From: a virus
Direction: 5' to 3' (one strand)
IMG/VR virus record: IMGVR_UViG_3300048593_000672
Span: 10,688 to 74,687 of that record
Length of the DNA stretch: 64,000 bases
Part shown: positions 531-63,805 of the stretch, piece by piece
Layout of the letters: the number at the start of each line of letters is the position of its first letter
How positions within the stretch are numbered: the first letter of the stretch is position 1
Notes under the pieces: model-generated
Seen by the model: the letters and a program-made list of their open reading frames with translations, nothing else
Told to the model about the DNA's origin: nothing
Database searches by the model: none
Position numbers and translations under genes: made by a program

Positions 531-2494
531 CCGCTTTTTTATCAACACCCACACCACTAAGTTTAGTTAAGCCCAAACTAACTCCACCTGTCCTGCGGGA
601 AGACCAGTTAAATGTTAAGCGCCAAGGCTATCAGTTAATCCGTGAAGGCCACAAGCGCATTCAGTTCGTTTGCCCTTGTGGTTGGGGAAAAACTGTTTTG
701 GCTGTTAGTTTGATTCACGACATCGCTTTTAAGGCCCAGGAACAGAAGGGTGGTAAAGAACGTAAAGTTTTGTTTTTAGTTCATGCCACCTGTTTAGTTG
801 ATCAGACTATTCAACAGCTTGCTACTGCTGGTATTTGGGCGGGAATAATTGCGGGGGGCTATAAAGAAAACCGCCACAAAAACGTTCAGGTTGCGATGGT
901 TCAAACCCTTGTCAAGCGTGACATTAGCTGGTTTGTTCCTGATGTAATTATTGCTGACGAAGCCCATGAATCGCTTTGGTATAAGTGGTCATTAGAGCGT
1001 TTTCCTAAACTCAAAGACGGCCAAACCATTTTTACGGCTGGTGCTTTAGATAATGAGTTGAGAGCTATCGGTTTTAACATTGACGCGACTATTTTGAATG
1101 GCGATCGCTATCCCACTTTTGAAGAAGTAAAGCACCAGCACAAAGAATTTTTGAAGTCTAATCACCCCGATCGTGGGGGGAGCAAAGAAATTACCCAACA
1201 GGCTAATGCAGCTTGGGATGTTCTTAAAGACCATCGTGACTTGTTTGATAGTGGCGATCGCCCAACTAACGCTCCTATCCTGATCGGACTAACTGCAACC
1301 CCCTGGCGATTATCCAAACGTCAATCAATGGGTGACATCTTCCCAGTCCAAGTGTTAGGCCCCACGCCTGGAGAGATGGTTGCGCTAGGTCAAGCGACTA
1401 ATTTTCAACAGGGTTTAGTCCCGTTCGTTTACTGGGGTATTGGTGGGGCTGAAACTAAATCATTACGAGTCCCGAGGGGGGGATCGGATTTCACTGAAGC
1501 CCAATTAGATGAAAGTTTTGCCATTCCCGAAGTTGTCCAGTGTGCGGTGGATAATTACATGGATAAGTCAAAGGGTCGTCGGTTCGTCTGCTTCCCTGTC
1601 TCCATCCACCACGCCCAGATGTTAGTCCATGCCTTTACTCGTGCTGGTATTCCTTGCGCTCTTATCAAGGGCGATACTCCCAACGGTAGTAAAGACAAGA
1701 TTACGGACAAAGAGACCCGTAATTCTATCTACGCAAAAGTTCGTAAAAAAGAGTTGATGGGGATAATTTCGGTAGGCTGCATAAATTTAGGATTTGACCT
1801 ACCTGAGATTAGCTGTGTGATTGATTGCTGTCCAACTTTAAGCCGTTCCAAATATGTTCAGGGGGCTGGTCGGGGCCAACGGATCGCGCCCTGGGATGGA
1901 AAAGTTGACTGTCACTACCTCGACCAGGCGGGGAATGTGATGCGACATGGGCAGATCGAATCTATCCAGTATGGGGAATTAACACCAGCAGGGGAAATTA
2001 TTCCTGAAGAAGCCCCCATGAAAGAATGCCCTGAGTGCCATCGGCTTTTAGTCACCTTCCACATGAAATGTATTCATTGTGGCTATGAGTTTCCCGCCCC
2101 CGAAAAAGAGCTTGCTGTCGGTGATATGCAGTTAATCGTTAGGGAAGATGAAGAGGGTCTTTACTATGCCTTTAAGGACTTACTACGTCAAGCTTATCAG
2201 TTTAATAATGCTCCATATTGGGCTGAAATGCAAATCAATGAACATGAACTTTACAAAACCCATAAATCAGTTAAGAACAAACAAATTCAGCTTGACAAAA
2301 AAGGCAAGCATTTGTTATGGCATCCCGTTAAAGCTTGGTATCACCACGCAATTTTTGAAAAGCCCACAAAAGAGGACGAACAAGCCTATATGCAATACTT
2401 GCAGAATGTAGCATCAAAATACGCTGAACCCAAGCCCGATTGGTGGTTCCGCAATTACATGAAAAAGGAATTTGGGGAGGGTTGGAATGGATAA
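527..2494 (+). CDS. SF2 DEAH helicase with inserted J-domain and C-terminal Zn ribbon
   Basis: Walker A PCGWGKT, DEAH, LTATP, GFDLP, QGAGRGQR, CPEC..CIHC; HPDRGG insert. Confidence 0.92.
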   Translation: MTAFLSTPTPLSLVKPKLTPPVLREDQLNVKRQGYQLIREGHKRIQFVCPCGWGKTVLAVSLIHDIAFKAQEQKGGKERKVLFLVHATCLVDQTIQQLATAGIWAGIIAGGYKENRHKNVQVAMVQTLVKRDISWFVPDVIIADEAHESLWYKWSLERFPKLKDGQTIFTAGALDNELRAIGFNIDATILNGDRYPTFEEVKHQHKEFLKSNHPDRGGSKEITQQANAAWDVLKDHRDLFDSGDRPTNAPILIGLTATPWRLSKRQSMGDIFPVQVLGPTPGEMVALGQATNFQQGLVPFVYWGIGGAETKSLRVPRGGSDFTEAQLDESFAIPEVVQCAVDNYMDKSKGRRFVCFPVSIHHAQMLVHAFTRAGIPCALIKGDTPNGSKDKITDKETRNSIYAKVRKKELMGIISVGCINLGFDLPEISCVIDCCPTLSRSKYVQGAGRGQRIAPWDGKVDCHYLDQAGNVMRHGQIESIQYGELTPAGEIIPEEAPMKECPECHRLLVTFHMKCIHCGYEFPAPEKELAVGDMQLIVREDEEGLYYAFKDLLRQAYQFNNAPYWAEMQINEHELYKTHKSVKNKQIQLDKKGKHLLWHPVKAWYHHAIFEKPTKEDEQAYMQYLQNVASKYAEPKPDWWFRNYMKKEFGEGWNG

Positions 2495-2651
2495 AAAAGA
2501 TAACTATCCCAACAAACATAATCATACAAAAGAACCAATGCCAAGACACGCTTATTTAGCTTGGCACGACTGGGCTAAAGAGATGTCTAAAACCCACCGA
2601 CAAATTCAATGTCCAGACTGTAAGCTTTATTGTATTTGGGTAAAACTTTAA
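2487..2651 (+). CDS. Small CxxC protein (54 aa, not in ORF track)
   Basis: ATG overlapping the helicase end; MDKKD...QCPDCKLYCIWVKL. Confidence 0.5.
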   Translation: MDKKDNYPNKHNHTKEPMPRHAYLAWHDWAKEMSKTHRQIQCPDCKLYCIWVKL

Positions 2652-2663
2652 CAGGACAAAATC

Positions 2664-2846
2664 ATGCAATCAATCAACTTTGATCTCGGTGAACTATTAG
2701 TAATACAATTATTGATAGAAAGTATGCTTGAAAGTCAGCCAAACCCTCTTGTCTCAGTCGAAGACTTGATGTTGTCTATCGCATTACGATCTGCTCAAAC
2801 AAAAGTAAACGAAGCCATTAAAAAAGAAAATGAAGCCAATGCTTAA
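2664..2846 (+). CDS. Hypothetical protein
   Basis: AGGA RBS, operon spacing. Confidence 0.55.
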   Translation: MQSINFDLGELLVIQLLIESMLESQPNPLVSVEDLMLSIALRSAQTKVNEAIKKENEANA

Positions 2847-3034
2847 ACAACTAATCAACAAACTACTTTCCCTCGCTGGTATTAGTTTATGCAAATAATT
2901 AAATTTATCTTTTTTGTCTTTTGTGCCTACAGTTTAATCTTGTTTGGTTTAGGCTTTTACTATGGAGCAAGAGTCTATAAAATACAAAAACAAAAAGCTT
3001 GGCTTGAGTCTTTATTTTTACAATCATCAACAAA

Positions 3035-3592
3035 ATGAGAACCAAAAACTTTATCAAGACTGTCAGATCGTTAATGACTGAGACTGACCACCAAAAAGAA
3101 TTTGACAACTACGTTAAATGGGAGTCAAAAAAGACAGAGCAAGGCAACCGTAACATTGATCTGTTAGCTCAAGCTGTTAATCAAGCCGTAAGCAAAGTCA
3201 ATAAAACAATAGATGATTTTAGCCGCTCTATTATTGATTGCTCAGATCGGGTTAATGAGTTTAAGAGCCTCCTGCCTATTGAGGGAGAATACAAATTAAT
3301 AAGACTTATCTCTCCTAGTCGTCTTTTTATGGGGTTTGCTGATCCGACTTTTACGGTTCCCATCCCAGAATCGTGCCAAGTTTCCCCAATGAATGTGACT
3401 TGTAATTATGGGGGTTATAACAGCAATGGCGTATGGGGAATAGATTGGTATCGAACTGTGATGGGTGGCTTTGATGTTGATTTATCTGAAGCCAACGACA
3501 AAATGCACAATTGTCCCTATTTTGTCAACAGTTCCCAACTAAAATGTACAGCAAACCCCACTAATACTAATTGTTTGGAGTGTAATGAGTAA
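3035..3592 (+). CDS. Hypothetical protein with Cys-rich C-terminus (DUF6464-like)
   Basis: CPYFVNSSQLKCTANPTNTNCLEC. Confidence 0.6.
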   Translation: MRTKNFIKTVRSLMTETDHQKEFDNYVKWESKKTEQGNRNIDLLAQAVNQAVSKVNKTIDDFSRSIIDCSDRVNEFKSLLPIEGEYKLIRLISPSRLFMGFADPTFTVPIPESCQVSPMNVTCNYGGYNSNGVWGIDWYRTVMGGFDVDLSEANDKMHNCPYFVNSSQLKCTANPTNTNCLECNE

Positions 3593-4374
3593 TGCTATTC
3601 ACAACCCACGACCGCAACCTTATCATTGACAGCGAAACTTATTTAGCAGCCTACAGTTTTGAGCCAACTGCCATCGAAACAACCGCCACACTCGACCCCA
3701 ACAATGCAGAATTAAAGTCAATCTATAGCGATCAAATCACACCAGCTTTTGTTTTGGGTGGTGGCTTGCGCGACGCTAAAATCATTCACTTACAGGGTGT
3801 AGATTGGCGATCACTTCCCCCCACCGTTGAAGCCCATCCCTTTAAAGAAGTTGGGCAAGTCGGGAAAGTTACTGGCAAGGGTCGGACTGCTTTTACCGTA
3901 GAAAATCGCACTCGCATTAGTGCTGCTCTCGCTGGTGCTTCTGTCTTAAAGACCAGTCCACTTTGCTTACATAATTTCTGCGATGTGCCAAGAGTCGTCA
4001 TTGGGGGGGGCTGTGGATTAAGTATTGGCTACTATACTCATCAAGCTACCGTTGATACTGTCAACAGCCAGTCCAGCTTTCTCTTGTCTAGTACCAGTGA
4101 TTTTACCTATGGCTATATCGAATTTACGTCTGGAGAAAATGCCGGGTGTCGATTTGCTATTAGCACTGGCTACAACGGCGCAATTGAGCTTGCTGAAATA
4201 CCAGAGGGAGAAGTTAAAGTAGGGGATGAGGTAACAGCCGTTGGGGGCTGTGCCAAAACTCCAACGGCTTGTCAAGCCTATGGCAACTTCATAAACTTTA
4301 TGGGCATTCCCACCGGAGGGAGTTGGATACCTGGGATGGACGCAGTTCAAAATGCACCAATTGAGAGGGCTTAA
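3592..4374 (+). CDS. Tail hub protein, DUF2163/Phage_BR0599 (RcGTA g13-like), lacking first strand
   Basis: FTTHDRNL, SPLC..GC, FTSGENAG, GCAKTPTAC..GNFINFMGIP. Confidence 0.85.
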   Translation: MLFTTHDRNLIIDSETYLAAYSFEPTAIETTATLDPNNAELKSIYSDQITPAFVLGGGLRDAKIIHLQGVDWRSLPPTVEAHPFKEVGQVGKVTGKGRTAFTVENRTRISAALAGASVLKTSPLCLHNFCDVPRVVIGGGCGLSIGYYTHQATVDTVNSQSSFLLSSTSDFTYGYIEFTSGENAGCRFAISTGYNGAIELAEIPEGEVKVGDEVTAVGGCAKTPTACQAYGNFINFMGIPTGGSWIPGMDAVQNAPIERA

Positions 4375-4686: not shown

Positions 4687-4876
4687 TCTTTTCGGAGAAC
4701 ACCAGCCAGTGGATAAACATGGCAATCCGTTGAAAATTGGGGATAAAATCAAAATCTCTAAAGATGATACTCTAGGTGCCACTGTTATTGGTTGTGAAGT
4801 CAATCTAGTTGTCTTTGACGGCTATCGTACAATGTCATTTGACTCTAGTTTATTGGAGAAAATTAACAATGACTAA
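4670..4876 (+). CDS. Small KOW/SH3-like protein
   Basis: DKHGNPLKIGDKI pattern. Confidence 0.55.
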   Translation: MYLQVDLFGEHQPVDKHGNPLKIGDKIKISKDDTLGATVIGCEVNLVVFDGYRTMSFDSSLLEKINND

Positions 4877-5929: not shown

Positions 5930-6199
5930 ATGAGCAATAAAGTTTTAAAGCCTGCAAAAGATTTAGTTGTTGGCGAAAAATTCAACTTTAATAATGGGGA
6001 AAAACCTTCATATGTGTGGGTAGTTGACAGCATAAAAAAAGACCCTCGATTCCCCAACGAAATAGAACCAATGGATGTGTGGGAAATCACTTATCACATG
6101 GAGCATCCTGATATTCAATCCCCCCGTCAGCATTTTGTCCACGCTGATAAAAGTGATCTTGTTTTAGCGATAGTTAACGCACCCCCGCCCGTAATTTAG
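5930..6199 (+). CDS. Hypothetical protein, convergent with tape measure
   Basis: ATG coupled to the upstream stop. Confidence 0.55.
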   Translation: MSNKVLKPAKDLVVGEKFNFNNGEKPSYVWVVDSIKKDPRFPNEIEPMDVWEITYHMEHPDIQSPRQHFVHADKSDLVLAIVNAPPPVI

Positions 6200-9100
6200 C
6201 CAACTGGCGATCGCGTTCAATCTGACTCATTGACTTGCCAAGATCATTCGTGTTAGCCACTTCAATCTTAATGGTTTGATTGAAGTTGTTAACAGTTCCC
6301 TCGCTGGTATTAGTCTGAGTAGTGTTGGGGATGTAGGAAACAGGGCCGCCCTTGGCAAAATTCTTAACATCCTTGGCCATACGTTCTGACCAGTCTTTAT
6401 AGTTGCGGTAGTCGCTGGCTTCGTTTGCAGAAATCACATACTCGTCAGCATTAAGGACGGCCAGGATGGGCCGCTTACCACCCGACTGCGACCTCTCCCG
6501 ATTCATTGCTTGACTAATGCCTTCTACCAGTCCCCCACCCGCATAATTATCAATCTTGAGGGGGTCAACGGGGCCGCCGTCGGCAAAGTTGAACGCATGA
6601 CTAATCATTCCTGTAAAGCCGCCCGATAAGCTGTCAGCTATTGATTGACCCGCACTGGCATTACCAGCGTTAAACAGATTGCCAAAAATATCACTGCCAG
6701 CATTGATAAAGCTACCGCCGCCGCTAACTGTTAAAGCACCAGCAAAAGCAGATAGGGCTGTAGTCGCTTCTGTCAGTCCCAAAATAAAACCGGCCATGGC
6801 GGGGTCAGTGGAAGTAATACCAGCGAGGAAAATGTTATCCATTGCTTGGCTGGTATTAGTCGTTGATTCCGTCAGGCTAGTAAATGCACTACTCAAATCA
6901 ATTGTGTCGGGTAAAGCTTGACCTGTTGTTAATGTATTGCTTAAGTCAAAAGGCACAATGTTGTTGGCCGCTATGCTTGCCCCCCGCTCACCTAGTCGCG
7001 TAATTACATGGGGATAAAATTCTTTGTTATCCAGACCGAGCATTGGCCCAACCCATTCAGCGATCGCATTTTGGAAGGGTTTGATAGCTAACTGCTCTAA
7101 CATCATCCCCAAAACAAGATCCTTGACTTTGTTGAGCGACTCCCCTAGTCCCTTAGACTCTAGGATCGCGCTACGCAGCCCCGAACTAAACTCTTTTAGA
7201 CCTGGGATAGCGTCAACAAATGATCGCTTAATATTTAACTCACTAATCTCAGCCTGAAACCGCCGCATTTCACTAGCCTGTTGAGGCGAGTAAGCACCAT
7301 CCCGAATCTGCTTCTCTAAATCAACTCTGGCTTGAGCCGCTTGCATCCGAGCATTAATAATCGCACTGGGGTCAATTAACGTTCCCATTCCCCAATCATT
7401 CTGCGCCCCAACGTCATAACGGGTTTTGTAGAGGTCAGCTTGAATTTTGGCATAACCCTGTTTAGATGCCATAATTTTATCGAGTCGCAACCAGGCTTCA
7501 GTGGCTCGTTTAGTGGGTTCTTCTAACGCAGCCATCGCCTTGGATTGCCTGTCAATTTCTTCCCGACGAGCTTGCATAATGGGAATGCTGTCGGTATAAA
7601 GTTTTAAATTGCTTTGATAAACAGACATAGCTTGCAACTCTTGAGTAGTTGCTTGGCGACCAGCTTTCGTCAGTTCAGCTTGCTTGTCAGCTAAGGCTTG
7701 TGCCGCAACCGCCGCACCAATATAGGCATCATCCATCTGTCTGCCAAGATTCCGCAATTCATCATCAAAATCACGGTTCATCTGGCGGAATTGTACACTA
7801 ACTCCTTCTACAGCCAGGTTAATCTCATCAGCAGCCGTTTTATAGCCCTTGCTGTTAATGGCTAACTCACGATACTTGATATTGTTATCCTCAACTTTTC
7901 GACTCAAGTTAAGAGCCATATCTTGAAGGGATTGTAATTGCTGTTGGAAGGCATTGTTGAACTTGACCACCTCAAGATTGCCTTGCAGATCAAGCACAGC
8001 CCGATTGACCCCAATTGTCGCATTCTTAACATCATTAATCTGACCAGCCGTATTAGTTAAACTACTCGTATCTTGTACAGTGATTGGATTTTGATCTGTA
8101 ATTTGCTGTAAGCCGCTATAGTCATTAATTGCCCTTGGCTGGTATTTTGTAATAAATGGACTTTGTACGTTTGGCAGGACATTTCCCCCATTCATATCAA
8201 CTTGAGGCTCAAGTTGAGAAGGTTGATAGCCTGGGAGTGTTTGATATTTTTTAATGTTGGGGTTGACATTGGCATTGCTACTACCAATCCCCTTGGCCGC
8301 ATCAACTCTTGCCTGACTTTCCTTAAATTGTTTGGCAATTGCCTCAGTGCGTTTTTTCCAATCCTTCGACGACATCCTATCAATAAACTTAATGCCTTTT
8401 GACTCATAAAACTCATCAAGTTTAAAGGCTTCAGGATAAAGTTCTTTTTGATATTTGATAATATCTTCTAATGGCTTGCGGCTAATATTATTTGGATCGT
8501 TCAACTCAGCTTGACGTTTTCTTGCCTTCTCCTGTTCGATCCGTTTGGCCCGCGCAGCAGTAGTGGCATTAGTCTGGAAAATTGCAGATCCCATATCACT
8601 AATACCCTCACTGGCATCAGCGACTAGCCACTCTTTGGGGGCCGCCGATCTCATTTGATTGTATAAGATACCCCTTACTCTAGATAAAGACTTCAAGTAT
8701 TTAGATCCGTAGGCTGGATCTGTAGCATAGCGACCATAGCGACCCTTAAAGTCACGGTTGATAAAATCTTCAGGAGTGCTAAAGAAAAAGTCTTTTTTAA
8801 GTTTAATTGCTGCGTACTCTAAGCCCTGTCCGTAGGTTTTAAAGTGCTTGTTATTGCCAGCATCATCGTTGCCATAGTTCAGTGGGTTTTTAGTAAACTT
8901 CCCTCGTCCCTTGGTTCCAAAATGGCTTTCAATAAATGCTTGAGTTACTAAGGCATCAATGCTAACTCCTGACTTGGTAGCAGCATTTTTAAAATCCTCA
9001 ACTGTCATTTGAGAACCATACTGGTTCAGCAATCTTGCTAAGTTTTTCTCCCATCCCATCGATTGAGTAGTAGCAGCCTGCGCCGGAGCGGTCAAGATGT

Positions 9101-12100
9101 TTTGCGCTGGTACTTGTAGTTGATACGATGTTTTAACTTGCTTTGGTGCAGCAAGATTTAATCTCATCCCCCCGCCATACTTGCCCATCAGCCCGTTTAG
9201 TCCATTAACATCCCCAGGTGCGTAGTATTTAGTTGGTTGTACGACCGCACTTGGCTGACCAATCGGGACTGAGAACGGGACTCGTTCAACTACCGACTCA
9301 CCGTAGCGGGGATCGATATTAATACCAGCAGAGGGATTGTATGAGAGAGGGGCGGCTGGCAGTGAAGGGAGCTTGTTTTGATAGCCGCTATTGGGAGCTT
9401 CTTTCGTAATCCGGGTTATGATTTGCTCTAGCTCACGCCCTAACTTAATAGATGACGACTCCATCTGCATCATCATTGACCTAAACTGTTCATTGAGCCG
9501 GATGATGCTACGAGTGCGTTCCTCTTCGGCCCGCAGTTGTTTCTCCTGTTCATCCCGAATGCGCCGGAGAGTCGTCACATACTCTTGGCCAACCTGACGT
9601 TGTTTCTCATCAAGCGATCGCCCTTCCCCTTCCAAATTGCCGATATTCGCGAGGAAGTCAACAAAGATACTGGCAGTCTTTTTACCAATACTGTCGGGTT
9701 GGAAGCTGATGGATTCAACAGCCAGCGTAGCCTTAGCTTGTCTCAGTTTCTCGCTGGTGCTTTTAAGTTCATTCTGAGCGGCCAATAGTTGACCTTCCAA
9801 ATCAAACTGTAAATCAGCCCAAGCCTCCTGCAAACCGCGAGTCTCGATAAAGGCATTACGGGCTGAATCCTGCACAGACCAGCCAAAGTCACGGACTTGT
9901 TGTTGCCAACCAATCTCAGTCTCTAGCACAGAGCGGTTAAAGTCCTCTACCGATTGACCCAAGCCCCGATAATACTCTTCAGTGTTCTGTCCCGACTGCA
10001 TCACTGCAAACTCAGCTTTAGCTACAGCTTCATTAGCACTTGCTAGTTGTTTAGCTAACTCTACTGGGTCTTGGGAGTTATCCTTAAACAGTGCTTTAAC
10101 ATCTCTTAACTGACGTTTAGCTGTAGCCAAGTCATTGTAAGCAGAAAAAGCTTGAATATCTTGAGTGCCAATTTTGCCCTTACTAGCAGCTTGATACATC
10201 TCAATATTCGTGTTGCTAGCCGCAATCTGGGTGTTAGCTTGACGGATAGCATTGAGTCGTTGTTGCTGTAGCTTTTCAAGATCAATTTGAGCTTGTAAAA
10301 CTTTGCCCTCTAACTCATTCGCTTGCTGGTATTTTTCTTTAAACTTAATAGATTGCTCTAAGAAAGTTTTTAGTCCCCCGCTAATACCATCCCCAGATTC
10401 AACCAACGCCTTCATTGTCTCCACGCTGGTATTCATGATCATGTCTAGGGGGTCTTTATATTTCTCCCCACCACGACCTCGTAACTCAAGCCGGTTCATT
10501 GCATCCTGAGCGACACTTGGCTCTAGTCCATTTAAAGCAAAACCTTTAAATGTTTCAGCATCTTGTTTAACAGGCAATAATTCCCGTTTGGCAGTAGTTA
10601 AGTTATCTAAAGCTTGCTGGCGTTGTAAATCAATATCATCAAGTTTTTGATTAAGCCGAGCTTCAAGTAATTGATTATTACGACGACTTGCTAACCCCTG
10701 ATTGTATTCAGCGATATTAGCACCAGCAGAAGAAACTAATTGACTAGCTCCTTGTAAACCAGGAATCTTTTGGTTGATAGAACCAGTGTGCATTCTGATT
10801 GCTTCTAGCCTGACGTTGGTATCAGACATTAGCTTGGCAATGACTTCTAGCTTTGCCTCACGTGCTTGAGCGTCGGGATTCTTTTTGACTGTCTCCCTCA
10901 TAGCCTCATAAGCTTTATTCATCTGCTCTAAAGCAATCTGATTGCCAAAAGTTTCATTGACGGCTTTTTCTCGATCCCCCACCTTTACTGCCAACTCAGC
11001 ACTAAGGTTTTTAAACTCCTCACGGTTGTTACCACCCAATTTACTGTTATTAGCTAAACGAGTTCTGATAACAGCAATCTCTCGATCTAGCTGAGAAATA
11101 TCAGCTTTACCTTTTGCAAGGTTTTGGGGATTAGCGTAATTTGCATCCGCCTGTTCGATCAGTCTTTTGCCATAGCTAATACCCCTGTCAACTTGCTTGA
11201 GGTCTTCCATCAAATCCCGCCGATCATCCTTATCCATGCGAACGGATTTGTAGATATTGCCTTTTTCGTCTCGGTAGTCAATAACGATGTTATTTATGCC
11301 ACTATTTGGCGCACTTGGATCAAAGCCAAATGGATGGGTGTAGTTATTTAGAACACCACCAAAAACTCGTTGGGCAAAGTCGCCAACTCCAGTGATAGGT
11401 GTTGGATTGCTGCCACCAAGTCTTGTGTAAGTTGGATCATTTCGATCAACCTTATTGGGGTCTTTCATCTTGCCAGTCAACGTATTAGTAGCTTCCAGAT
11501 TATTAATCATCTGCTCTAATTCATCGTTAGTCTTTTTCAATTCCCCGTGATAGGACTGCCAAATTTTAGTTCCTTTATCAATCGCAAATCCAATAGCAGC
11601 AAAAGCAATTAGTTGGGGGGCGATCGCATATAAAGCACTTCCGATACCAGAAAGCGCACCAGCTGTAGCAGCTAAACCCCTTACCGCCACATTGCTAGAC
11701 GATCCACTGATAACCAGGTTCGTGTTTAGTTTGGCTAGTCCAGTATTTAAGCCATTGAGTATCCAGTTATTAGTCATAAACTCAAGCCCCAAAACCTTGA
11801 GCGCAATCGTTACAACTCTTGAGGCTGTTCCCGTATCCAGTAAAGCAAAGACAAATTTAGCCCCAAGCATCGTTACTAAAAGTCCCAGACTCGCCGTTAA
11901 TCCCGTCGCTACACTGTTAAGCGCATTCATCCCACCAACAGCTATATCCATTGCTGGCTTGCCAACTCCCAAGATTGTTTCTCCCATCCGACCCTGTAGT
12001 TTTTCCTGGGCGTTCTGGAATCGGGCGATACTACCGAGCGGCCCTTCCTTCACCGTATTAATCGGTAATGTTGCTTCGTAGGCTAGTTGTTTGGCCAAGG

Positions 12101-22386: not shown

Positions 22387-22434
22387 TTGACAACTAAGTT
22401 TGCTATAGTATTATCAATCATAACATTTTACGGT

Positions 22435-24379: not shown

Positions 24380-24381
24380 TT

Positions 24382-27655: not shown

Positions 27656-27663
27656 TTTAACCC

Positions 27664-44627: not shown

Positions 44628-44715
44628 AACAAAATTATAACCTACTTTAGTCCGTAGCTTGACAACTGTGATTAAAGTTGATAGGTTGATAACTAACTAA
44701 CACCAGCGAGGTAAA

Positions 44716-45653: not shown

Positions 45654-45655
45654 AA

Positions 45656-48520: not shown

Positions 48521-48746
48521 TTCTAGTAAATTTGCTCAAAACAATACATTTTACTGTTTTAATGTTTAACAATATAACGGCGCAGTGGGAGAATTGACAA
48601 AAAACACGTAATTAACGTGTTGTACTGTAAGTTTAGTTTGCGCGTATTACAATGTTAATGATTTTGTCAATATTTGTTAGTCAACAAAATAGCGACATAG
48701 ATCGTTAAAATCTAGTCGCTATAATTCTTTCTGCTGGTATTTGTTA

Positions 48747-50928: not shown

Positions 50929-51030
50929 AATGCTGCCCTCTCTGTATCGAGTTGTTAATGTTTGTATAAATCTAATCTCCCACAATCCCACAACTTTGTC
51001 AAGCCTTTTCAGCAAAAAAGTTTAAATTAC

Positions 51031-51087: not shown

Positions 51088-51636
51088 CTAAGCAGCTAAA
51101 AAGCTCTCGGACAAGCGTTCTAACACTTCCCTTTTGCTGGTATTAGTGTGCTTACTTAAAAGTTCCGCGCCATAGGCTACAGCCAGCTTGCGGGCATTGT
51201 CTATCGCCTCTTGATAGACTGTATCTATGTCCTCAAAAATACTGGTAACAACGCCCTTATTGTACATATCTTGTAAGTTTAGATTAAACAAAAACTCGTT
51301 TAGATCTTTACTTTCCTTAGCTACGTTGATCACAATTTCTAACCGCTTTTGCAATAGCTCTAAGCCTTTAGGGGTCAATTGTTGATGCAATTTATCGCCT
51401 TTCAATTGACGACTTTTTAACGTTTTATAAACACCATCTGGAAAGTGATCATAGATAACTTCTTTTGTGATTTGCGCCCAAGAGTGGGGTCGTAGATGTC
51501 CGTTCTGCTTTAATCCTGTAAGGCGTTCAAGTTGGCTATAATACTCATCTTCAAAGCGTTTTAGCCAGTGATTAACTGGCATAACATAGTCATCAATATT
51601 GACATTAGGGCATTTATCCTTTACAGTGGTAGTCAT
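51088..51636 (-). CDS. P63C-domain protein
   Basis: WLKRFEDEYY..RL, RP, IYDHFPDGV, KLHQQLT. Confidence 0.7.
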   Translation of the reverse strand: MTTTVKDKCPNVNIDDYVMPVNHWLKRFEDEYYSQLERLTGLKQNGHLRPHSWAQITKEVIYDHFPDGVYKTLKSRQLKGDKLHQQLTPKGLELLQKRLEIVINVAKESKDLNEFLFNLNLQDMYNKGVVTSIFEDIDTVYQEAIDNARKLAVAYGAELLSKHTNTSKREVLERLSESFLAA

Positions 51637-53257: not shown

Positions 53258-53803
53258 AATTGGTAAGACGACAACTAAAATCAATTATGCCATAAAATGA
53301 CAAAAATACCAGCAAGGGCAAATTCTCTCGCTGGTGTTAATAAATGTTTAGTCTTTAAAAAGTGTATAAAAGTCTTAAAACTTTAGCTGCCACCAGCAGA
53401 GGGTAATAGTTACCTTGCTGGTGTTAGTAAATTAAGCTTTAAACTCAACGGCTAAAATGGCTTTTGCGGCTTCTTTAATACCACCTTCTAAACTAATGGC
53501 GATACCGTAACTAATCAACTCTTTTAGCTCACAACGGATGTTATGGCGATCTGTAGCTGTTAGAATGCGATAGGGGCGAATAGTATAACTAATCATTACT
53601 TCACCTCCCCACCAACTAAGATCACTGTATAGAGGCTGATACGAACGCGGCGGTTTAATTTGTTGGTGCGAACCTTAAACGATTGACTTTTTGTGTGTAA
53701 CATGATTAATTCCTTTAAACGGTAAAACAGTTAAGTTATTAACTTTTATTAGCTAACTTCTTAACTGTTTTAATCATCACACAATCCAAGATAATTGTCA
53801 ACT

Positions 53804-54829
53804 CTAGTCAGTCTTAATTTTAACTAAACCAACTAACAAGCCATTAACTGCACAATTGATTTGGCCATCACTAAACTTGATCATTGTTTGTTGGCTATTG
53901 CCAATAGCATTGAGCAAGATTTGAGGCGATAAAATGAGCGTAAAATCAGCACCAGCGCAAGCAATATCGGGCTTAAAAGTGTGATTTTTGCTGTTAACTG
54001 TTAGATGATTATCATGCCAACAGAACTTAATGTAATCATCATATTTGTTGCACATCTCAGCCATCTTAACCAGTTCTTTGCTATCGGCTAAGATGATAGA
54101 ATCACCGATAAAACTAGACATTAACTGGGTGGTTGAATCATACAACCGTTTAGCATTTGTTCGCCCATAACTAAACGGTTGTGTCAGTGTTAGGTCGTCT
54201 TTAATAACGTTTAATGGGTTATCGTCATAGTCAGTACCACCATCATAAACATTAATAGTTGCCCCAACAGGCATAAACTTTTTAATTAAATTAATTAGGC
54301 GCGTATAGATGCGAAACCCAGTGTCACTATCGGCATAAAAATCGGTTTCTACCGACTTGTAGTAAAGTATTATGCCATTAGTAGCAAACACAGTAATTTT
54401 GTTATCCTTTGGCATAATTGCAACACCATTAAAGTCTTGCCTTGCGTCTTTAGTTGTGCAAAACTGGCTGGCATCAATAATCATTTGGCATAGACTGTCG
54501 GTAAGGATAAAAGAGTAGATTAATTTACCCTCGCTGGTATTGTTAAACGAACTCTCTGGCTCCCGCCCACACACTTTAAACTGACCATAATCGTAGTTGA
54601 TCACCAGTAAATTATCTGGGTCATAATCAACCCACAAATTAAACTTTTTAAGCTTGTTTAGAACCGTATTAAGTATAGTTGTGGGCAATTCCAAACACCA
54701 TTCAACGTCTTTATTGAATGGTGTAGTAGCAACACTTACATTGCCACCATAGATACTGCCATCGCTGTTAATTGTGACCGAATCAGAGACGGTTTTAATC
54801 GCTTGAATTGCTTGGTGTAAATTGTACAT
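53804..54829 (-). CDS. Divergent DNA Pol III beta sliding clamp-like protein
   Basis: 341 aa; ASQFCTTKDARQDFNGV..VFATNG. Confidence 0.65.
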   Translation of the reverse strand: MYNLHQAIQAIKTVSDSVTINSDGSIYGGNVSVATTPFNKDVEWCLELPTTILNTVLNKLKKFNLWVDYDPDNLLVINYDYGQFKVCGREPESSFNNTSEGKLIYSFILTDSLCQMIIDASQFCTTKDARQDFNGVAIMPKDNKITVFATNGIILYYKSVETDFYADSDTGFRIYTRLINLIKKFMPVGATINVYDGGTDYDDNPLNVIKDDLTLTQPFSYGRTNAKRLYDSTTQLMSSFIGDSIILADSKELVKMAEMCNKYDDYIKFCWHDNHLTVNSKNHTFKPDIACAGADFTLILSPQILLNAIGNSQQTMIKFSDGQINCAVNGLLVGLVKIKTD

Positions 54830-55247
54830 AGTAGTTAATAATCTGCCTAATAGTTGACGTAATGGTTGATTTTTTTTGCTGTTGGCGCAACCAGCTAATC
54901 TCTTCTGGACTTAAAAAGGTGATAGTGGTTTGCTTGAGTGGTTGGTCGTAGTCGTCAATGACCTTGACTTTGCAACGATCCTGTTTAAACTTAGCGATCG
55001 CCGCAGATAACCATCCTGGGGTGAAAGCTAAAGCCCGTTGCGACTCGGTAAGACTGGCACAGACCCGATAGGTTTTTTTACGACTAGTCGGACAGCCCTT
55101 ACAGTTCTGCTGCTGGTGCTTTTTATAGCTGGCAGCATCAATGTCATAAACACGACTACAACCCTCACATTTGACTGTATGAGTTAACCGCGCCCTTGAC
55201 ATTTCTGGAGTGCGTTTATTAAAAGTTGACAAGATTGTTAATGTCAT
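54795..55247 (-). CDS. Zn-finger hypothetical protein
   Basis: CEGC...CKGC. Confidence 0.55.
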   Translation of the reverse strand: MTLTILSTFNKRTPEMSRARLTHTVKCEGCSRVYDIDAASYKKHQQQNCKGCPTSRKKTYRVCASLTESQRALAFTPGWLSAAIAKFKQDRCKVKVIDDYDQPLKQTTITFLSPEEISWLRQQQKKSTITSTIRQIINYYVQFTPSNSSD

Positions 55248-55636: not shown

Positions 55637-55716
55637 AATTAATTCCTCAGTAAATAATGTTAATAAATTTGCCTCGCTGGTATTCGTGAATGATTAATAC
55701 CAGCAAGGGGGAGTGG

Positions 55717-56033: not shown

Positions 56034-57083
56034 CTACCAAGCCCGAACCGCAACAGTTTGAGTGCTGGCTTGACGGTTGCGTTCGGCGTAGGCAAAGGCA
56101 CTGATAGAGTTCAAAAACTCAGCCTGTTTGACGTTCACCGCAGAAGTGGGGTCAATCACCCGATCAACCAGTTTAGTCGCGTTCTTTTGCTTACCGTAGT
56201 TGTGGTTTAAATACTCAGTGGCAACATTTAAAAGCCCCCAACAAGTGTTATAAGCCGATAACATCTCACCACCCATATAATGCCCAGACTCAAACTGGCT
56301 AATGAGCGATTGCACCACTTTATTTTGGTCAGCTAAAGTCTTGGTCGGGTCGCCAAATTGTTTAACCAACTGGGTTACCGCTACAGCCATTGGCATTTCT
56401 GTATCTGCCAATAGTTGAAACTCAGCTTGGGTCTTCTCCCACTTAGCCACTGCTTGCTCCATCGTGCGGCGTACTTTTTGAACATCAAGATTTTTGTGGG
56501 AGATGATTAAATTGTCGCTAACCTTGGCCGTCATCCCATTAGTGCAGACAAGACGTTCTGCCATCAATCCAACCGACAGTCCCATCCCATAGTTATAGGG
56601 CATCCGCAAAATCACCTTGCCATCTACGCGATCGCCCCCAGGTAGTTGCATTGTGGTATTGGAACCAAGAGAACCAGCAGCAAACAATGTCGGCTTAAGT
56701 TGTTCCTCACCATACTTGTCTTGCTCTACGGACTGAATCGTGCCAATCTTTTCAAGGTCGATTTGGTTAGCACTGGCAAATTCACGGAACAGGTTAACAG
56801 TCTCACTAAACGATGGTGCATCCCAATCTTTACTCACCACATCCATAAACATACCGTCCTCTATGCGATAGAGTACAGGACGCTTGCCACTTTGATATTG
56901 AAACATGTGTCCATACTGAGTATCAGACTTTGCAAAATGCCAATCCAACCCAATCTCATTCAAAATTTTATCGGTTGACATTGACCCATCAACATCAATA
57001 CCAAGCCCCCTGAAAATATCTTTTTCTTGCTTGGATGCAAGTTTGTAGCCAGCTGACTTTGCCAAATCAGACACTAAAGACAT
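56034..57083 (-). CDS. DUF932 family protein
   Basis: GLDW, RLVCTNGM, TCWGLLNVATEY. Confidence 0.8.
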   Translation of the reverse strand: MSLVSDLAKSAGYKLASKQEKDIFRGLGIDVDGSMSTDKILNEIGLDWHFAKSDTQYGHMFQYQSGKRPVLYRIEDGMFMDVVSKDWDAPSFSETVNLFREFASANQIDLEKIGTIQSVEQDKYGEEQLKPTLFAAGSLGSNTTMQLPGGDRVDGKVILRMPYNYGMGLSVGLMAERLVCTNGMTAKVSDNLIISHKNLDVQKVRRTMEQAVAKWEKTQAEFQLLADTEMPMAVAVTQLVKQFGDPTKTLADQNKVVQSLISQFESGHYMGGEMLSAYNTCWGLLNVATEYLNHNYGKQKNATKLVDRVIDPTSAVNVKQAEFLNSISAFAYAERNRQASTQTVAVRAW

Positions 57084-57146: not shown

Positions 57147-57770
57147 TTATCTGGCACTTAAATAACGAATAAAGGTGCTGGCAATAAAATCATCTAGATT
57201 GTAGTTTTTATGCTTTAAATAAGCCTGTAATTTTTCGTAAATAGGCTTAAATATCTTAACCTCAATCGTAGTCGTGGCGGGAATGTTGAGCTTGCTAGGT
57301 ATATCCCCATTTTCAATCATTGCCCAAATAGCTTTGTTAAAACTAATATCATTAAAAGTTACCCATCGCACTAAGTCACCACCCTGAAACTTGTAGGGAA
57401 TTTTAACAGGTCTAATAGTATCTTTCATCCCAATTGGCTTGGGTTTAAACATTCGAGCATGGCGCAATACTCTAGAAATATTGGCTTTGTTATCGTAGTT
57501 AAAAATAACCGCCAGCATCTCATACGAATACCTATGAACGAGGTAATAATCTAAGATGTATTGACCGTTCTGGATGTGTGCAACTTTGGCCTGATAGCCA
57601 CTTAAAATATGTAACTTAATATCCTTCTCATGCAAAAAATCACATAACTGGTAATAATCACACCCCAACCTATCTGCAACATCCGCCAGAGTATAGTAAG
57701 GTTCTTCTTTGCCATCCCGTTTATTGCTGTAATAAATATCTTTAATCTGCTCTAGATCAAAATTAGCCAT
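57147..57770 (-). CDS. HTH DNA-binding protein
   Basis: TLADVADRLGC; second HTH-like segment. Confidence 0.55.
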   Translation of the reverse strand: MANFDLEQIKDIYYSNKRDGKEEPYYTLADVADRLGCDYYQLCDFLHEKDIKLHILSGYQAKVAHIQNGQYILDYYLVHRYSYEMLAVIFNYDNKANISRVLRHARMFKPKPIGMKDTIRPVKIPYKFQGGDLVRWVTFNDISFNKAIWAMIENGDIPSKLNIPATTTIEVKIFKPIYEKLQAYLKHKNYNLDDFIASTFIRYLSAR

Positions 57771-57840
57771 ACTAAAACCCTGCCTATTTGTATAGACAGA
57801 GTTTAACACTTAAAAGCAGTTGTCAGGCAAGTAAATGTAG

Positions 57841-58231: not shown

Positions 58232-58495
58232 TTAATTATGGCTATACTCGCTCCAATACCATTCAGATTTGGGGTGGCTTTCTAGCCATTTATCTGTTTT
58301 GTCCATCCGGCAGAGCATCTCATCTGTCTCGTAATGCGTATCATAGGAGCAATCACGTTGGATAACATAAAGAACACTACCTGGGGGGTGAGGGTATTTG
58401 GGTTTGGGGCCGAGCCACTGCCAAAAGCAAGCGGCGCAAAAAGCTAAGAACAAAACAGTGTGAACTAAATCTTGATCAGGTTTTTTGGTGGGCAT
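58232..58495 (-). CDS. Small membrane protein
   Basis: One TM segment. Confidence 0.5.
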   Translation of the reverse strand: MPTKKPDQDLVHTVLFLAFCAACFWQWLGPKPKYPHPPGSVLYVIQRDCSYDTHYETDEMLCRMDKTDKWLESHPKSEWYWSEYSHN

Positions 58496-58724
58496 GGATT
58501 GTTAACCTTGGGGGGCGTTTTTTGAGAGAAATACCAGCAGGAAGAAATTCTAATTCGGCGGCGATAATATCACCCGCACTAAGATTGCTTGGGGCGATCG
58601 CCGGAAAAGACGGGCCATGCTGATTGCGGTGGTGGCAGTAAGGAGCGATCCTGACTTCGTTTTGCCCTATCGCTAGAATCTTGTACATTCTGCGCTCCAT
58701 TGTTGGGCATAGTCTCAATGACAT
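58476..58724 (-). CDS. Hypothetical protein
   Basis: GAGG RBS. Confidence 0.5.
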   Translation of the reverse strand: MSLRLCPTMERRMYKILAIGQNEVRIAPYCHHRNQHGPSFPAIAPSNLSAGDIIAAELEFLPAGISLKKRPPRLTIHAHQKT

Positions 58725-59546: not shown

Positions 59547-59679
59547 TGCGATTAATCCCTTGAAAACTACTGTAATCACTAAATCATTTCTAATCATAGT
59601 TGTCAAGCTCACAACTAAACGCTAGGCAACAGCCACAAATACCAGCAGAGAAATATGGTTATATGACTAAGCAGTGCGT

Positions 59680-60075: not shown

Positions 60076-60199
60076 ATACCTCCCCTTGCTGGTGTTTTTT
60101 GCTTGACAACTGTGATAATATAGGGATGTAGCACCAATTTAGTCATTTCAAGCAATTGGTAAACTGATTGAGTTACACGATTAATTCCTTTAAATGATG

Positions 60200-61530: not shown

Positions 61531-61660
61531 ACGATTAGCACCAGCAAGCGGCTAATAACTGTCTTGCTGGTATTTGTAACAATGTTAGTCAACACCAAAA
61601 AACATTGGTTTAAGCAGCTAAAAGAATCCGACCCAATCAAAGAATCAGTCAATTGGGGGT

Positions 61661-61900
61661 TTGACTACAGTGTTGTTTAACGAGAAAGATCTAAAAAATG
61701 GCGACCTAGTTTTTAATATGGAGGCTTATGCTCGAATTACCTCACAATGGCCAAATAGGGGCGATTGTCCCTACTGCGGAAGAGAAGGGAGCCTGTCCAA
61801 CACCCTTTTTGCCAAGTGTATTAACCCCGACTGTCAGAGCAAAAAAATACGGGACAGGAAGAAGAAAAAGGCTAAACGAAGTAAGCAAAAAAGCCAATGA
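61661..61900 (+). CDS. Small Zn-ribbon protein with basic tail
   Basis: CPYC...CINPDC. Confidence 0.5.
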   Translation: MTTVLFNEKDLKNGDLVFNMEAYARITSQWPNRGDCPYCGREGSLSNTLFAKCINPDCQSKKIRDRKKKKAKRSKQKSQ

Positions 61901-62366
61901 TTATAAAGGATTCGGTCAGCCGTTTGAAGGTAAATTTGAATGGTATATAATCGAATGGAATCATGAATGGCTAAGTGACGAGGGTTTAGAAGTTGACCTA
62001 ATTGAATTGCATTGGGTCAAAGTTTTAAAGCCCAGTAAAAAGCAACGGATTTTCTACACTAATGCCATGTCTTTTGCTGGTATTAGTGACAATAAAATGT
62101 CTGTTGAAGATTTTTTGGCTTGCGTTTTTATGGGCTATTGTTCCGACAAAAGCAAAGTTCCAGCCGCTAATGCTGCTTGGCTTTATCGTGCCAACTTTAA
62201 AGGCGATACTGAGCCACGCGACCCCATCGGTCAACTCTATGGCACATGGAATGATGGGGACTTTCAAGACTCACTAATAGATACAGTGGCATTTAAACAT
62301 TGCTTCATTGATGAAGTAGTGCCAGAGGAGCAAGTGGAGCGATTTAGTAAGCGTTTAAAGCGTTGA
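61728..62366 (+). CDS. Hypothetical protein
   Basis: GGAGG RBS; overlaps previous ORF. Confidence 0.55.
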   Translation: MLELPHNGQIGAIVPTAEEKGACPTPFLPSVLTPTVRAKKYGTGRRKRLNEVSKKANDYKGFGQPFEGKFEWYIIEWNHEWLSDEGLEVDLIELHWVKVLKPSKKQRIFYTNAMSFAGISDNKMSVEDFLACVFMGYCSDKSKVPAANAAWLYRANFKGDTEPRDPIGQLYGTWNDGDFQDSLIDTVAFKHCFIDEVVPEEQVERFSKRLKR

Positions 62367-62409
62367 TATTTAGCTTGACAACTGTTATTATTAATTTAAT
62401 TCTAGCCTA

Positions 62410-62550
62410 CTACAAGGATGGAATCGGGTAGTGAATAATCAATAACAACACCCTCAGATTAAATGTGACTGGTAAAACAGCAACATCATTTAAGGTCTGT
62501 AAAAGTTGAAGGCTGTGAGACCCGACCCTGTCAGGAATGGGGGCTTTTAA
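62410..62550 (+). ncRNA. Candidate structured ncRNA
   Basis: TTGACA at 62375; closing stem, central bubble, apical stem; no ORF. Confidence 0.4.
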
Positions 62551-62758
62551 TTATTAATACCAGCAGGGTAAAATGTATGTTTATTGCTTGTTTTTTAGAT
62601 GGTACTCAGGAAGGTACGACAAAAGAATTATCAATTAATTGATAACTATCAAAATGTTTTGTTTTATGCAACCAATAGCTATTTGTTCGGTAAAAAAATA
62701 GTAGCACTTGCGGCTAAACATATATTAACAGTACACGCAAACAGTGTTAACCATGCGA

Positions 62759-63805
62759 TCACATCCGATCAACTTTAGCTAAAATCTTTTCAAACGCCTT
62801 CTGGTGCGTATCGTCATCAATCCATAAATTATAAGTGTCGGCATGGACTTTTTCGCTATGCCCCATTTGCTTTGAGGCCAGTCTAATATCCAGCCCTAAG
62901 TCAATTGTCCTTCTAGCCCAACAATGTCTAAGCGCATAGGGTGGGAAGGGGATGTGGTTGCGCTGGAATATTTTGGTGACGCGATCGCCGTAGTCTCGAT
63001 AGTATTTTCCGGTGCATTGAGGCAAACAACAATCAGTCAAGTTAAATTCGTCAAGCCAGTCGGGGTAGAAAGGCCAAGTTTTTCTCGCCCCGCGTTTGCC
63101 CTCGGTCACATAACAAATTCGATTTTCTACCAGGTAGCCAAGATCAACAAAAAATAATTCATGATTCCGCAACCCAAACGTTGCCAACATCCCGTAAGCC
63201 CATTTGCTTGACGGGTATTTAATCCTGTCATACCACTCCACGATAGTTTTGTCGTCTGGTAACAGCCTAGGATTGACTTTGCTGGCTGAATAATTGCCTC
63301 GTAGCGACGCAACATTCAAATCTAGCTGCAAAAACCTGGCCAACCCTCCTAACACCACACAAGCTTTTTTACGGGTGGAAGTGTTTGGCTTAGTTTTTGT
63401 CTTGATAAACTCCTGTAATACCTTTGCTGTAACGATCTTGTCACCATCAAAGTGGCTTAAGACGGATAAATAATCATGCTCCCAAGTGCCTAGGCTTTGA
63501 ATCGTCGGTAAGTGATCAATAAAATACTGCTCTTTGAATCGGGCGATCGCATCCTTAAAGGTCAGCTTACAAATACCAGCAGGAGAAGTTTTGTCTGGCC
63601 AGGTAAACGTCCCATCCTCTAGTTGAATCGCCAAAACTAAAGCCCTGTCTTTTGCCTTCTCCCATCCCATCGGGTCACTCGCTAATCCCGTTGCTATCCT
63701 CTGCTGGTGCTTATTTTCTTTTCCGCTCCCAGGCTTCGGCGGTAGCGTTGCTACTAAGTAGAGCCACCCACTCCGATCTACGATTGTCACGTTTTTTACT
63801 TTCAT
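62759..63805 (-). CDS. int: Tyrosine integrase, cyanobacterial type
   Basis: LYLVATLPPKP arm domain; GLRNHE, LRHCWARR, MGHS..H..TY. Confidence 0.95.
   Translation of the reverse strand: MKVKNVTIVDRSGWLYLVATLPPKPGSGKENKHQQRIATGLASDPMGWEKAKDRALVLAIQLEDGTFTWPDKTSPAGICKLTFKDAIARFKEQYFIDHLPTIQSLGTWEHDYLSVLSHFDGDKIVTAKVLQEFIKTKTKPNTSTRKKACVVLGGLARFLQLDLNVASLRGNYSASKVNPRLLPDDKTIVEWYDRIKYPSSKWAYGMLATFGLRNHELFFVDLGYLVENRICYVTEGKRGARKTWPFYPDWLDEFNLTDCCLPQCTGKYYRDYGDRVTKIFQRNHIPFPPYALRHCWARRTIDLGLDIRLASKQMGHSEKVHADTYNLWIDDDTHQKAFEKILAKVDRM

Follow-up and report, generated by a model that had tools for sequence, protein, structure and literature searches.

The stretch of viral DNA analyzed here, 64,000 nucleotides that we refer to as the window (bases 10688–74687 of the 74,687-bp IMG/VR record IMGVR_UViG_3300048593_000672), carries many dispersed copies of an asymmetric, non-palindromic word built on AYACCAGC. 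In its full form the word is A-R-Y-ACCAGC-RRGGRAAATT, and there are about 90 discrete full-word sites in the record (1.2/kb). The word is constrained at the level of the DNA and, within sampling limits, is private to a small phage lineage. We tentatively read its copies as selected, dispersed recognition sites for a DNA-binding or DNA-processing protein specific to that lineage, which would mark phage as opposed to host DNA; we consider this reading possible, if short of probable.

The first-pass annotation had taken the DNA for a prophage flanked by host chromosome. It is instead a single virus record (41.8% G+C), the 74.7-kb genome of a free temperate cyanophage that occurs across many lake-water metagenomes (20-odd runs). 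The 39 copies of HIP1 (GCGATCGC) in the whole record, compared with 3.4 expected after synonymous shuffles, mark it as a cyanophage, and the fact that the integrase open reading frame (ORF; 62759–63805) adjoins a tRNA-Cys (63877–63948) identifies it as temperate. Positions are window coordinates unless marked as genome positions, and the genic and intergenic labels rest on a simple longest-ORF call.

Enrichment and structure of the word

More than 50 copies of AYACCAGCR had been reported in the first-pass annotation where one or two would be expected, and our counts agree: there are 54 matches in the window (the first at 826, the last at 63573–63581), compared with a mean of 1.52 (± 1.4) and a maximum of 8 under 100 dinucleotide-preserving shuffles. 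The shorter form, AYACCAGC, occurs 74 times in the whole record, with 65 copies in the window, and there are 134 ACCAGC cores in the 74,687 bp. Sixty of the 74 AYACCAGC copies are inside ORFs and 14 are intergenic. The genic copies are read in all six frames, as AGI/AGV (23), NTS (12), IPA/TPA (10), K/xYQQ (7), LLVF (6) and other peptides (2), consistent with the earlier observation that the word encodes AGI/AGV, LVF, IPA and NTS in different genes and also sits between genes. The 17-mer CTTTTGCTGGTATTAGT, said to be shared by three genes, was indeed found at 51131, 52098 and 62071.

The enrichment survived the codon-preserving shuffles that had been proposed as a check. In 300 synonymous-codon shuffles that kept the proteins and the codon usage of each gene, AYACCAGC fell from 74 copies to 23.1 ± 2.6; since the 14 intergenic copies are untouched by such shuffles, about nine genic copies are expected and 60 are seen. 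The 8-mer is present at 58 of the 160 places that the encoded protein permits (70% in the Ala-Gly-Ile/Val frame, which is the cheapest). The spread over frames, the codon shuffles and the conservation at third-codon positions described below all support the proposal that the constraint acts on the DNA, independently of frame and strand.

The purine run and A/T tail that had been noticed after the core are real and present in the logo, A-n-n-A-(A/G)-Y-ACCAGC-R-R-G-G-R-A-A-W-T-T. Upstream of the core there is an A at −3 (80%), an A or G at −2 and a Y at −1, with a further A at −6. The downstream box, R-R-G-G-R-A-A-A-T-T, is position-specific, and roughly 10–11 bp, close to one helical turn, separate it from the core. 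Refinement on the phage genome produced a weight matrix of 22.6 bits, which gave 97 matches in the phage at a cut-off of 10 bits; raising the cut-off to 18 bits left 80, and this persistence indicates that the sites form a discrete class and not the tail of a continuum.

Conservation in a relative and confinement to the phage lineage

The sole relative that we found in public collections is a 46.4-kb IMG/VR contig (G001; the phage record under study is G000), whose terminase is 73% identical to that of the phage and which is collinear with it over 33.8 kb at 82% nucleotide identity. When the PrimPol-helicase, the methyltransferase and the SNF2 helicase were used as queries, each retrieved G001 alone. 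This contig has 56 copies of AYACCAGC compared with four of the reversed control, its logo is identical to that of the phage, and it has 1.34 weight-matrix matches per kb although it was left out of the training of the matrix. A check for conservation in relatives had been suggested, and in this comparison the word was kept in place at 38 of the 42 aligned G000 sites, compared with 30% identical among all aligned 8-mers; at five of the 38 kept sites the degenerate Y alone was changed. Third-codon positions are 97% identical (64/66) inside the word and 68% outside, and non-coding positions are 100% (86/86) and 82% identical, respectively. At the site in the terminase gene both phages encode LLVF, compared with LQV[I/M/L], which leaves no room for the word, in 65%-identical relatives; this amounts to two amino-acid differences. 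The word is strong enough to rewrite synonymous sites and, at the terminase site, the one examined, amino acids.

The word is depleted where the two phages do not align. Within the range covered by G001, there are 0.38 sites/kb in unaligned segments compared with 1.24 in the shared backbone (P = 0.008), and the density of ACCAGC cores is 0.76/kb compared with 2.31/kb (P = 0.0005). The depleted segments have a lower G+C content and hold the genes for the C5 and Dam-type methyltransferases, an ORF with two helix-turn-helix motifs and several small ORFs.

We also considered whether a biased process acting on resident phage DNA might create or restore copies, so that the word need not serve the phage. 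Such molecular drive, for example by short-patch conversion in phage recombination or methyltransferase-coupled repair, has been proposed for uptake sequences and HIP1, but we think it rather improbable here. In its favor, the word has statistics like those of uptake sequences (both strands, cheap frames, scarcity in unshared segments, an A/T flank and hairpin pairs; PMC2817400), HIP1 is similarly conserved in the same genomes (at 15 of the 19 places that can be aligned), a recombination module and four methyltransferase genes are present in the phage, and five of the 12 lineage-specific sites differ at at least three of the eight bases. The excess of such clustered multi-base changes is not significant, however (P = 0.18), and the differences between the phages are point changes. 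As these are substitutions and not insertions of a unit, a mobile mini-element inserted as a unit was ruled out. Also weighing against drive are the lack of any reverse transcriptase, Vsr-like or homing nuclease among the ORFs scanned, and the absence of the C5 and Dam-type methyltransferases from the G001 contig, which keeps the word. Furthermore, a neighbor-word test in the phage found none of the depletion of C-to-T neighbor words that very-short-patch-type repair would leave, and an imprint of that type was ruled out; an apparent depletion of CCCAGC and TCCAGC was an artefact of a Markov model inflated by the word itself. The HIP1-like mutational imprint suggested in the first-pass annotation therefore fails, as the word is also asymmetric and host-like sequence is without it; in site conservation the word does resemble HIP1.

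The remaining question of ownership concerns the host, for which density in the host chromosome had been put forward as a check. The result is that the word is a feature of the phage and not of the host. In a sample of 401 cyanobacterial genomes drawn evenly across the phylum, the 9-mer AATACCAGC reached at most approximately 206 copies per 6.3 Mb (1 per 30 kb), compared with 50 per 74.7 kb in the phage, and none of the 405 genomes counted exceeded one copy per 30 kb. For the phage tRNA-Cys, identity is 99% to its counterpart in one 6.0-Mb cyanobacterial genome and 97% to those in a group of 6–8.5-Mb genomes, matches that provide a lead to the attachment site and the host lineage. We refer to these best-matching genomes as host-like, and they may not be those of the true host. 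They have 100–180 copies of the 9-mer, which is 3–10 times commoner in them than its reversed control. In 800 kb of one host-like genome HIP1 occurs at 0.89/kb, as in a typical HIP1-rich cyanobacterium, and AYACCAGC at 0.13/kb. ACCAGC is present there at approximately twice the median of same-composition hexamers (rank 2 of 60, in the company of CCAGCA and other words that overlap it), a pattern suggestive of codon usage, and the flanks of its 616 copies showed coding periodicity alone, with no phage consensus. Matches to the weight matrix in the same 800 kb were 0.016/kb at 14 bits and 0.002/kb at 18 bits, 75-fold and about 500-fold rarer than in the phage.

It is very improbable, in our estimation, that the word belongs to an unsampled natural host, or to a host process, and was inherited by a long-resident prophage. 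The points for such an origin are that the phage is temperate and shares the host word HIP1, that the genomes counted number about 400 of the phylum and the 16-mer scan is known from the matches listed, and that host-like genomes have the excess of the 9-mer over its control. The points against it are that all 405 genomes have at most one copy per 30 kb, that the mild excess is matched by words of the same composition and lacks a flanking consensus, so that it is accounted for by codon usage, and that HIP1-bearing cyanophage contigs with related terminases are without the word. In addition, a 16-mer scan of one genome per prokaryotic species gave, among the matches listed, unrelated taxa, although this is weak evidence.

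Searches of other viruses support the confinement of the word to this lineage. No enrichment of the word was found in 80 IMG/VR contigs whose terminases are more distantly related, a set that includes many HIP1-bearing cyanophages, and a 15-mer scan of IMG/VR found no motif-rich virus besides the phage and G001. Five IMG/VR contigs with 5–9 copies of the 8-mer were rejected as analogues since they lack the flanking consensus and one of them is a coding repeat. The frequent words in the 80 distant-terminase contigs were tandem repeats of a CTGATAA heptamer or lysine-rich coding words, and for that reason were also rejected as analogues. The CTGATAA arrays are intergenic and tandem in contigs L127–L133 (terminases 46–49% identical), which have no HIP1, and they resemble the short tandemly repeated repetitive sequences of filamentous cyanobacteria. 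Scans of metagenomes gave one close fragment of 1.8 kb with one site, a search for prophages in the 401 cyanobacterial genomes gave a best terminase identity of 42%, and the four core forms of the word that were sought had no relevant occurrence in the full text of the papers covered.

Orientation, spacing and genomic context of the sites

The copies are divided equally between the strands (38 plus, 36 minus) and plus and minus copies follow one another without order in both phages (runs test, P = 0.36 for G000 and 0.66 for G001), so that the check for strand skew, also proposed at the outset, revealed neither skew nor polarity. Relative to transcription, 29 of the genic sites are sense and 31 antisense, and this parity rules out an RNA-level role. 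The gaps between sites are Poisson-like (coefficient of variation 0.98), and no periodicity or even spacing was found in a gap analysis of the genome.

These properties bear on the possibility, which we regard as unlikely, that the word is a signal for the processing of single-stranded DNA. In a Chi-like form it would control a helicase-nuclease, taming a host or phage end-processing enzyme that enters a linear, possibly permuted genome from either end; in a second form it would be a lagging-strand priming site for the PrimPol-helicase, a template site whose purine run would correspond to the first bases of the primer. Both orientations, at approximately one site per 2 kb per strand, would suit bidirectional ends or forks, and the reverse strand of the word, GCTGGTRT, matches 6–7 of the 8 letters of Escherichia coli Chi (GCTGGTGG). 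The phage has a PrimPol with a DUF3987 helicase, two SSBs, a Sak4-type annealing protein and no recognized DNA polymerase. Primases start on a pyrimidine template with purine nucleotides, which would explain a loose purine run beside a strict core. However, the spacing is random and not even, there is no polarity or strand switch, although rolling-circle or origin-based replication would favor one strand per arm, the host-like chromosome is without the extended motif, and 20 bases of information is far above known Chi or primase sites. RecC (Pfam Exonuc_V_gamma) was not found in the five most host-like genomes in a search for which the E. coli control was positive and in which AddAB was not sought, and recBCD is often missing from large-genome cyanobacteria (PMC5101192). 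Of the Chi-like reading in the first-pass annotation the likeness in letters stands, but a RecBCD-type Chi is ruled out by the lack of RecC and of enrichment in the host-like genomes and by the lack of polarity.

The largest gap between sites, 6.8 kb (23332–30129), is marginally unusual (P = 0.06). It contains small structural ORFs and three HIP1 copies, has a lower G+C content (38.6%), and lies outside the coverage of the G001 contig; its origin may be a module exchange with a cyanophage that is without the word. At the other extreme, seven pairs of sites are ≤60 bp apart. Strong hairpins are predicted at the inverted intergenic pairs 53306/53330 (−17.5 kcal/mol) and 55676/55697 (−19.1) and at the genic pair 6817/6849 (−16.2; z −3.2 to −6.0), and in the minus-strand transcript a U-rich tail comes after the hairpin at 53306/53330.

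A separate, promoter-like family is found before genes and consists of (T)AGCTTGACAACT, about six bases and (T)AGTTGT, with a TTGACA −35 box inside an ACAACT/AGTTGT inverted repeat. Its members are at 20496, 22386, 33089, 38648, 38874, 42933, 44658, 47625, 49911, 60102, 60234, 62374 and other positions. The family survives synonymous shuffling because it is mostly intergenic, eight of its nine alignable copies are kept in G001, and it is probably the phage's own promoter plus operator. As this intergenic promoter family carries a different word, a promoter or operator role for AYACCAGC was ruled out.

Other than a large terminase, tail proteins, an endolysin and a 4300-aa ORF (6174–19076), the phage encodes a set of replication and recombination proteins: two SSBs, Gp157, a 977-aa PrimPol plus DUF3987 helicase, an SNF2-type helicase and a Sak4-type AAA_24 protein. 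No DNA polymerase was recognized among the phage proteins. The SSB paralogs (122 and 97 aa) are on either side of the Gp157 gene, upstream of the PrimPol-helicase (genome 1947–3135). There are four methyltransferase genes, for C5, Dam-type D12, 511-aa N4/N6 and 211-aa NPPY enzymes. The N terminus of the 511-aa protein appears by eye to be ParB/sulfiredoxin-like, although Pfam called neither a ParB domain nor a ParB helix-turn-helix. The 211-aa protein (genome 940–1575, left of the window) has an EPxxGxG-like motif I and an NPPY motif IV, is 74% identical in G001 and is too small to include a target-recognition domain, so that it resembles a pared-down N6-adenine methyltransferase. The C5 and Dam-type genes flank a small helix-turn-helix gene (genome 6807–9091, just left of the window), and this cassette is without the word and absent from the G001 contig. 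ORF 44716–45099 (127 aa) has two helix-turn-helix motifs, with weak matches to Sigma70_r4_2 and HTH_23/HTH_17 and faint ones to GcrA and Terminase_5. It is divergent from the packaging genes and absent from G001, and its start is preceded, at 16 nt, by one of the AYACCAGC sites. A dCTP deaminase-like gene (41053–41631) adjoins the lysis genes; the dCTP deaminase family feeds modified-pyrimidine pathways in some phages.

With these enzymes present, the word might be a modification target of the ParB-like N4/N6 or the NPPY methyltransferase, the modified sites protecting the genome or timing a process, an explanation to which we give little credence. YACCAG ends in AG, like many of the words that are adenine-methylated on one strand by type IIG/IIL and BREX systems, but this is a lead only. 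Both enzymes are conserved between the phages (80% and 74% identity, respectively), and HIP1 is tied to two methyltransferases (PMC4390886; PMC13756078). Methyltransferase targets, however, are not normally enriched, restriction targets are avoided, and 20 bases is much longer than known methyltransferase words. The relaxed specificity of ParB-fused methyltransferases also counts against a modification target.

The AYACCAGC copies in the window are given below along its length, with their strands in brackets. In the helicase ORF 527–2494, ATACCAGC is antisense at 827–834 (−) and 1643–1650 (−) and ACACCAGC is sense at 1982–1989 (+), where the Y toggles in G001. ATACCAGC is intergenic at 2875–2882 (−), and ACACCAGC is sense in ORF 3592–4374 at 3739–3746 (+) and intergenic at 4699–4706 (+). 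All six are kept in G001, as are the first seven in the 4300-aa ORF, namely the sense copies at 6303–6310, 6849–6856, 8138–8145, 10325–10332 and 10425–10432 (all −) and the antisense copies at 6817–6824 and 9322–9329 (both +), among which 6817 and 6849 form an inverted pair. The rest of this ORF has sense copies at 13210–13217, 13596–13603, 16365–16372 and 16411–16418 (all −) and antisense copies at 13642–13649, 15023–15030, 18418–18425 and 18820–18827 (all +).

Downstream, the word is antisense in ORF 19498–20445 (19844–19851, +), intergenic by the longest-ORF set at 20601–20608 (+), sense in ORF 20736–21440 (21402–21409, −), and both sense (21771–21778, −) and antisense (21892–21899, +) in ORF 21446–21901. 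ORF 22387–24081 has an antisense copy at 22708–22715 (−) and a sense copy at 23324–23331 (+), the last before the 6.8-kb gap. The first after it is antisense at 30130–30137 (+) in the tail ORF 29502–32096, which also has a sense copy at 31999–32006 (−) and an antisense copy at 32056–32063 (+). Single copies follow in ORFs 32597–33088 (sense, 32771–32778, +), 33185–33427 (antisense, 33245–33252, −), 33428–33847 (sense, 33677–33684, +) and 34225–34908 (sense, 34488–34495, −). ORF 35161–37056 has antisense copies at 36251–36258 (+) and 36863–36870 (+) on either side of a sense copy at 36642–36649 (−), and further copies are in ORFs 37101–37865 (antisense, 37840–37847, +) and 39509–40162 (sense, 40042–40049, −) and in the small ORF 41854–42039 (antisense, 41972–41979, +).

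From 43384 to 49116 all copies are kept in G001. They are antisense in ORF 43290–44627 (43384–43391, +, and 44578–44585, +), intergenic at 44700–44707 (+), which is the copy before ORF 44716–45099, antisense in the terminase large subunit gene at 46105–46112 (+), the LLVF site, antisense in ORF 47226–47612 (47287–47294, +), intergenic at 48733–48740 (−) and sense in ORF 48747–49475 (49109–49116, −). Sense copies are also present in ORF 49942–51015 (50684–50691, −) and in the P63C-domain ORF 51088–51636 (51136–51143, −), the latter within the 17-mer. The ORF of the ParB-like/N4-N6 methyltransferase (51749–53284) has a sense copy in the 17-mer (52103–52110, −) that is lost by an indel in G001, and an antisense copy (52280–52287, +) that is kept. 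The intergenic copies at 53306–53313 (+) and 53330–53337 (−) are a convergent inverted pair forming the hairpin noted above, and those at 55676–55683 (−) and 55697–55704 (+) are a divergent inverted pair with a 13-bp stem; both pairs are kept, as is the intergenic copy at 53417–53424 (−). A sense copy in ORF 53804–54829 (54533–54540, −) has a one-base difference in G001. Copies kept in G001 are also found antisense in ORF 58476–58724 (58531–58538, +), between genes at 59639–59646 (+), 60088–60095 (−), which adjoins a word of the promoter family, and 61566–61573 (−), and antisense in the integrase ORF at 63573–63580 (+). The other two copies of this region are antisense in ORF 61728–62366 within the 17-mer (62076–62083, −) and intergenic at 62557–62564 (+).

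A possible reader and comparison with known systems

The equal strands, random orientation, near-equal numbers of sense and antisense sites and Poisson spacing fit a direction-indifferent reader that binds duplex DNA, and the fixed second box 10–11 bp from the core resembles the architecture recognized by monomeric two-domain binders (PMC9283540). In the reading that we tentatively favor, the copies would paint the conserved phage backbone in both orientations, and for a reader of the whole word of about 20 bases nearly all strong sites in an infected cell would be on phage DNA. The reader would be a phage-encoded monomer that binds double-stranded DNA, with one module on the 9-bp core and a second, one helical turn away, on the GGRAAATT box. 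Once bound, phage DNA would be recognizable as self to a process that is indifferent to orientation, for which the candidates are prophage-wide silencing or roadblocking, protection, or the recruitment of an enzyme of replication, recombination or modification. Should the reader be encoded by the phage within the part covered by G001, then the C5 and Dam-type methyltransferases, ORF 44716–45099 and the P63C ORF are excluded, since all are absent from the G001 contig, which keeps the word. Two of the candidate readers named in the first-pass annotation lie beyond the coverage of that contig or are absent from it, which puts them out of reach of the comparison. The proteins common to both phages are a 109-aa helix-turn-helix protein (genome 7807–8136), the ParB-like and NPPY methyltransferases, the PrimPol-helicase, the SNF2 helicase and several ORFs without assigned function, including genome 315–791, 9094–9492, 9755–10150 and 10645–11217 and window 53804–54829, 54795–55247, 56034–57083 and 57147–57809.

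Several points weigh against recognition sites of this kind. We infer both the reader protein and its binding, and the genomes that bear the word number two, which is too few for an analysis of gene co-occurrence. HIP1 is almost as well conserved between the phages, and its maintenance is still debated, so that conservation of sites is by itself no proof that a site is bound. The 6.8-kb stretch and several cassettes are without the word and, therefore, the phage can dispense with any one site and with any given local density. A function that needs even coverage is hard to reconcile with the random spacing. Finally, the host search covered part of the phylum, which may not include the true host.

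Genome-wide iterated words such as Chi, uptake sequences, KOPS, HIP1 and stoperators have each exposed a machine that reads the identity or direction of DNA. That a virus, and not its host, should have a word with uptake-sequence statistics points to a new way for a phage to mark its own DNA, and the word is unusual among iterated recognition words in being virus-owned, mostly in coding sequence and without polarity. It is conceivable, though we hold this with some doubt, that it is a virus-owned self-word, a private 20-base tag in about 90 copies by which a phage-encoded reader tells viral from host DNA; if so, its purpose could be protection, genome-wide silencing or the recruitment of replication or recombination machinery. 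Lake metagenomes could also be searched with the word as a signature by which to recognize further members of the lineage.

Among known systems, HIP1 is likewise hyper-abundant in both phages, independent of frame and similarly conserved at orthologous positions (15/19, compared with 38/42 for the word). It differs in being a palindromic octamer that is abundant in the host chromosome and tied to GATC and CGATCG methyltransferases, whereas the phage word has no such symmetry, extends over about 20 bases and is confined to the phage; the function of HIP1 is unsettled (PMC5861425, PMC13756078). Chi shares with the word its dispersed, over-represented and asymmetric character but is a word of the host chromosome with replication-linked polarity, read by RecBCD or AddAB.

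The first-pass suggestion of a stoperator- or parS-like site is nearest in spirit to our reading. The stoperators of L5, Bxb1 and TipsytheTRex are, like the word, lineage-specific, asymmetric, present in tens of copies genome-wide in a temperate phage and absent from the host, and the approximately 90 sites exceed the >20 asymmetric copies throughout a temperate phage genome by which stoperators are recognized. The stoperator repressor is a monomeric two-domain DNA binder (PMC9283540), which the combination of core and second box also fits. In Cluster A mycobacteriophages, however, stoperators are in promoters and short intergenic spaces and their orientation tracks transcription (PMC9283540). 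The phage word is genic at 60 of 74 sites and divided 29/31 between sense and antisense, and the phage promoters carry another word with its own inverted repeat; a strict stoperator is thereby ruled out, being neither promoter-placed nor transcription-oriented here. parS was ruled out also, as it is palindromic, present in few copies and bound by a ParB helix-turn-helix, compared with about 90 dispersed copies of an asymmetric word.

It is DNA uptake sequences that the statistics of the word most resemble. Those of the Pasteurellaceae (USS) and Neisseriaceae (DUS) have an asymmetric core of 9–12 bases with a weaker A/T-rich flank, approximately one copy per kb, equal strands, random orientation, copies in all frames with a bias to cheap ones, and intergenic inverted pairs that form hairpins. 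The scarcity of the word in unshared segments is also as for uptake sequences in recently acquired DNA, which are lacking in genes without homologs in related genomes (PMC2817400). Uptake sequences differ in that a bacterial chromosome holds hundreds to thousands of copies, for which the reader is the cell's own competence machinery, whereas the phage word is virus-borne and rare in host-like chromosomes, and no uptake machinery is implied. A self-word system of the kind proposed above would give viruses an equivalent of uptake sequences, Chi or stoperators, one that is free of orientation and situated mostly in coding sequence.

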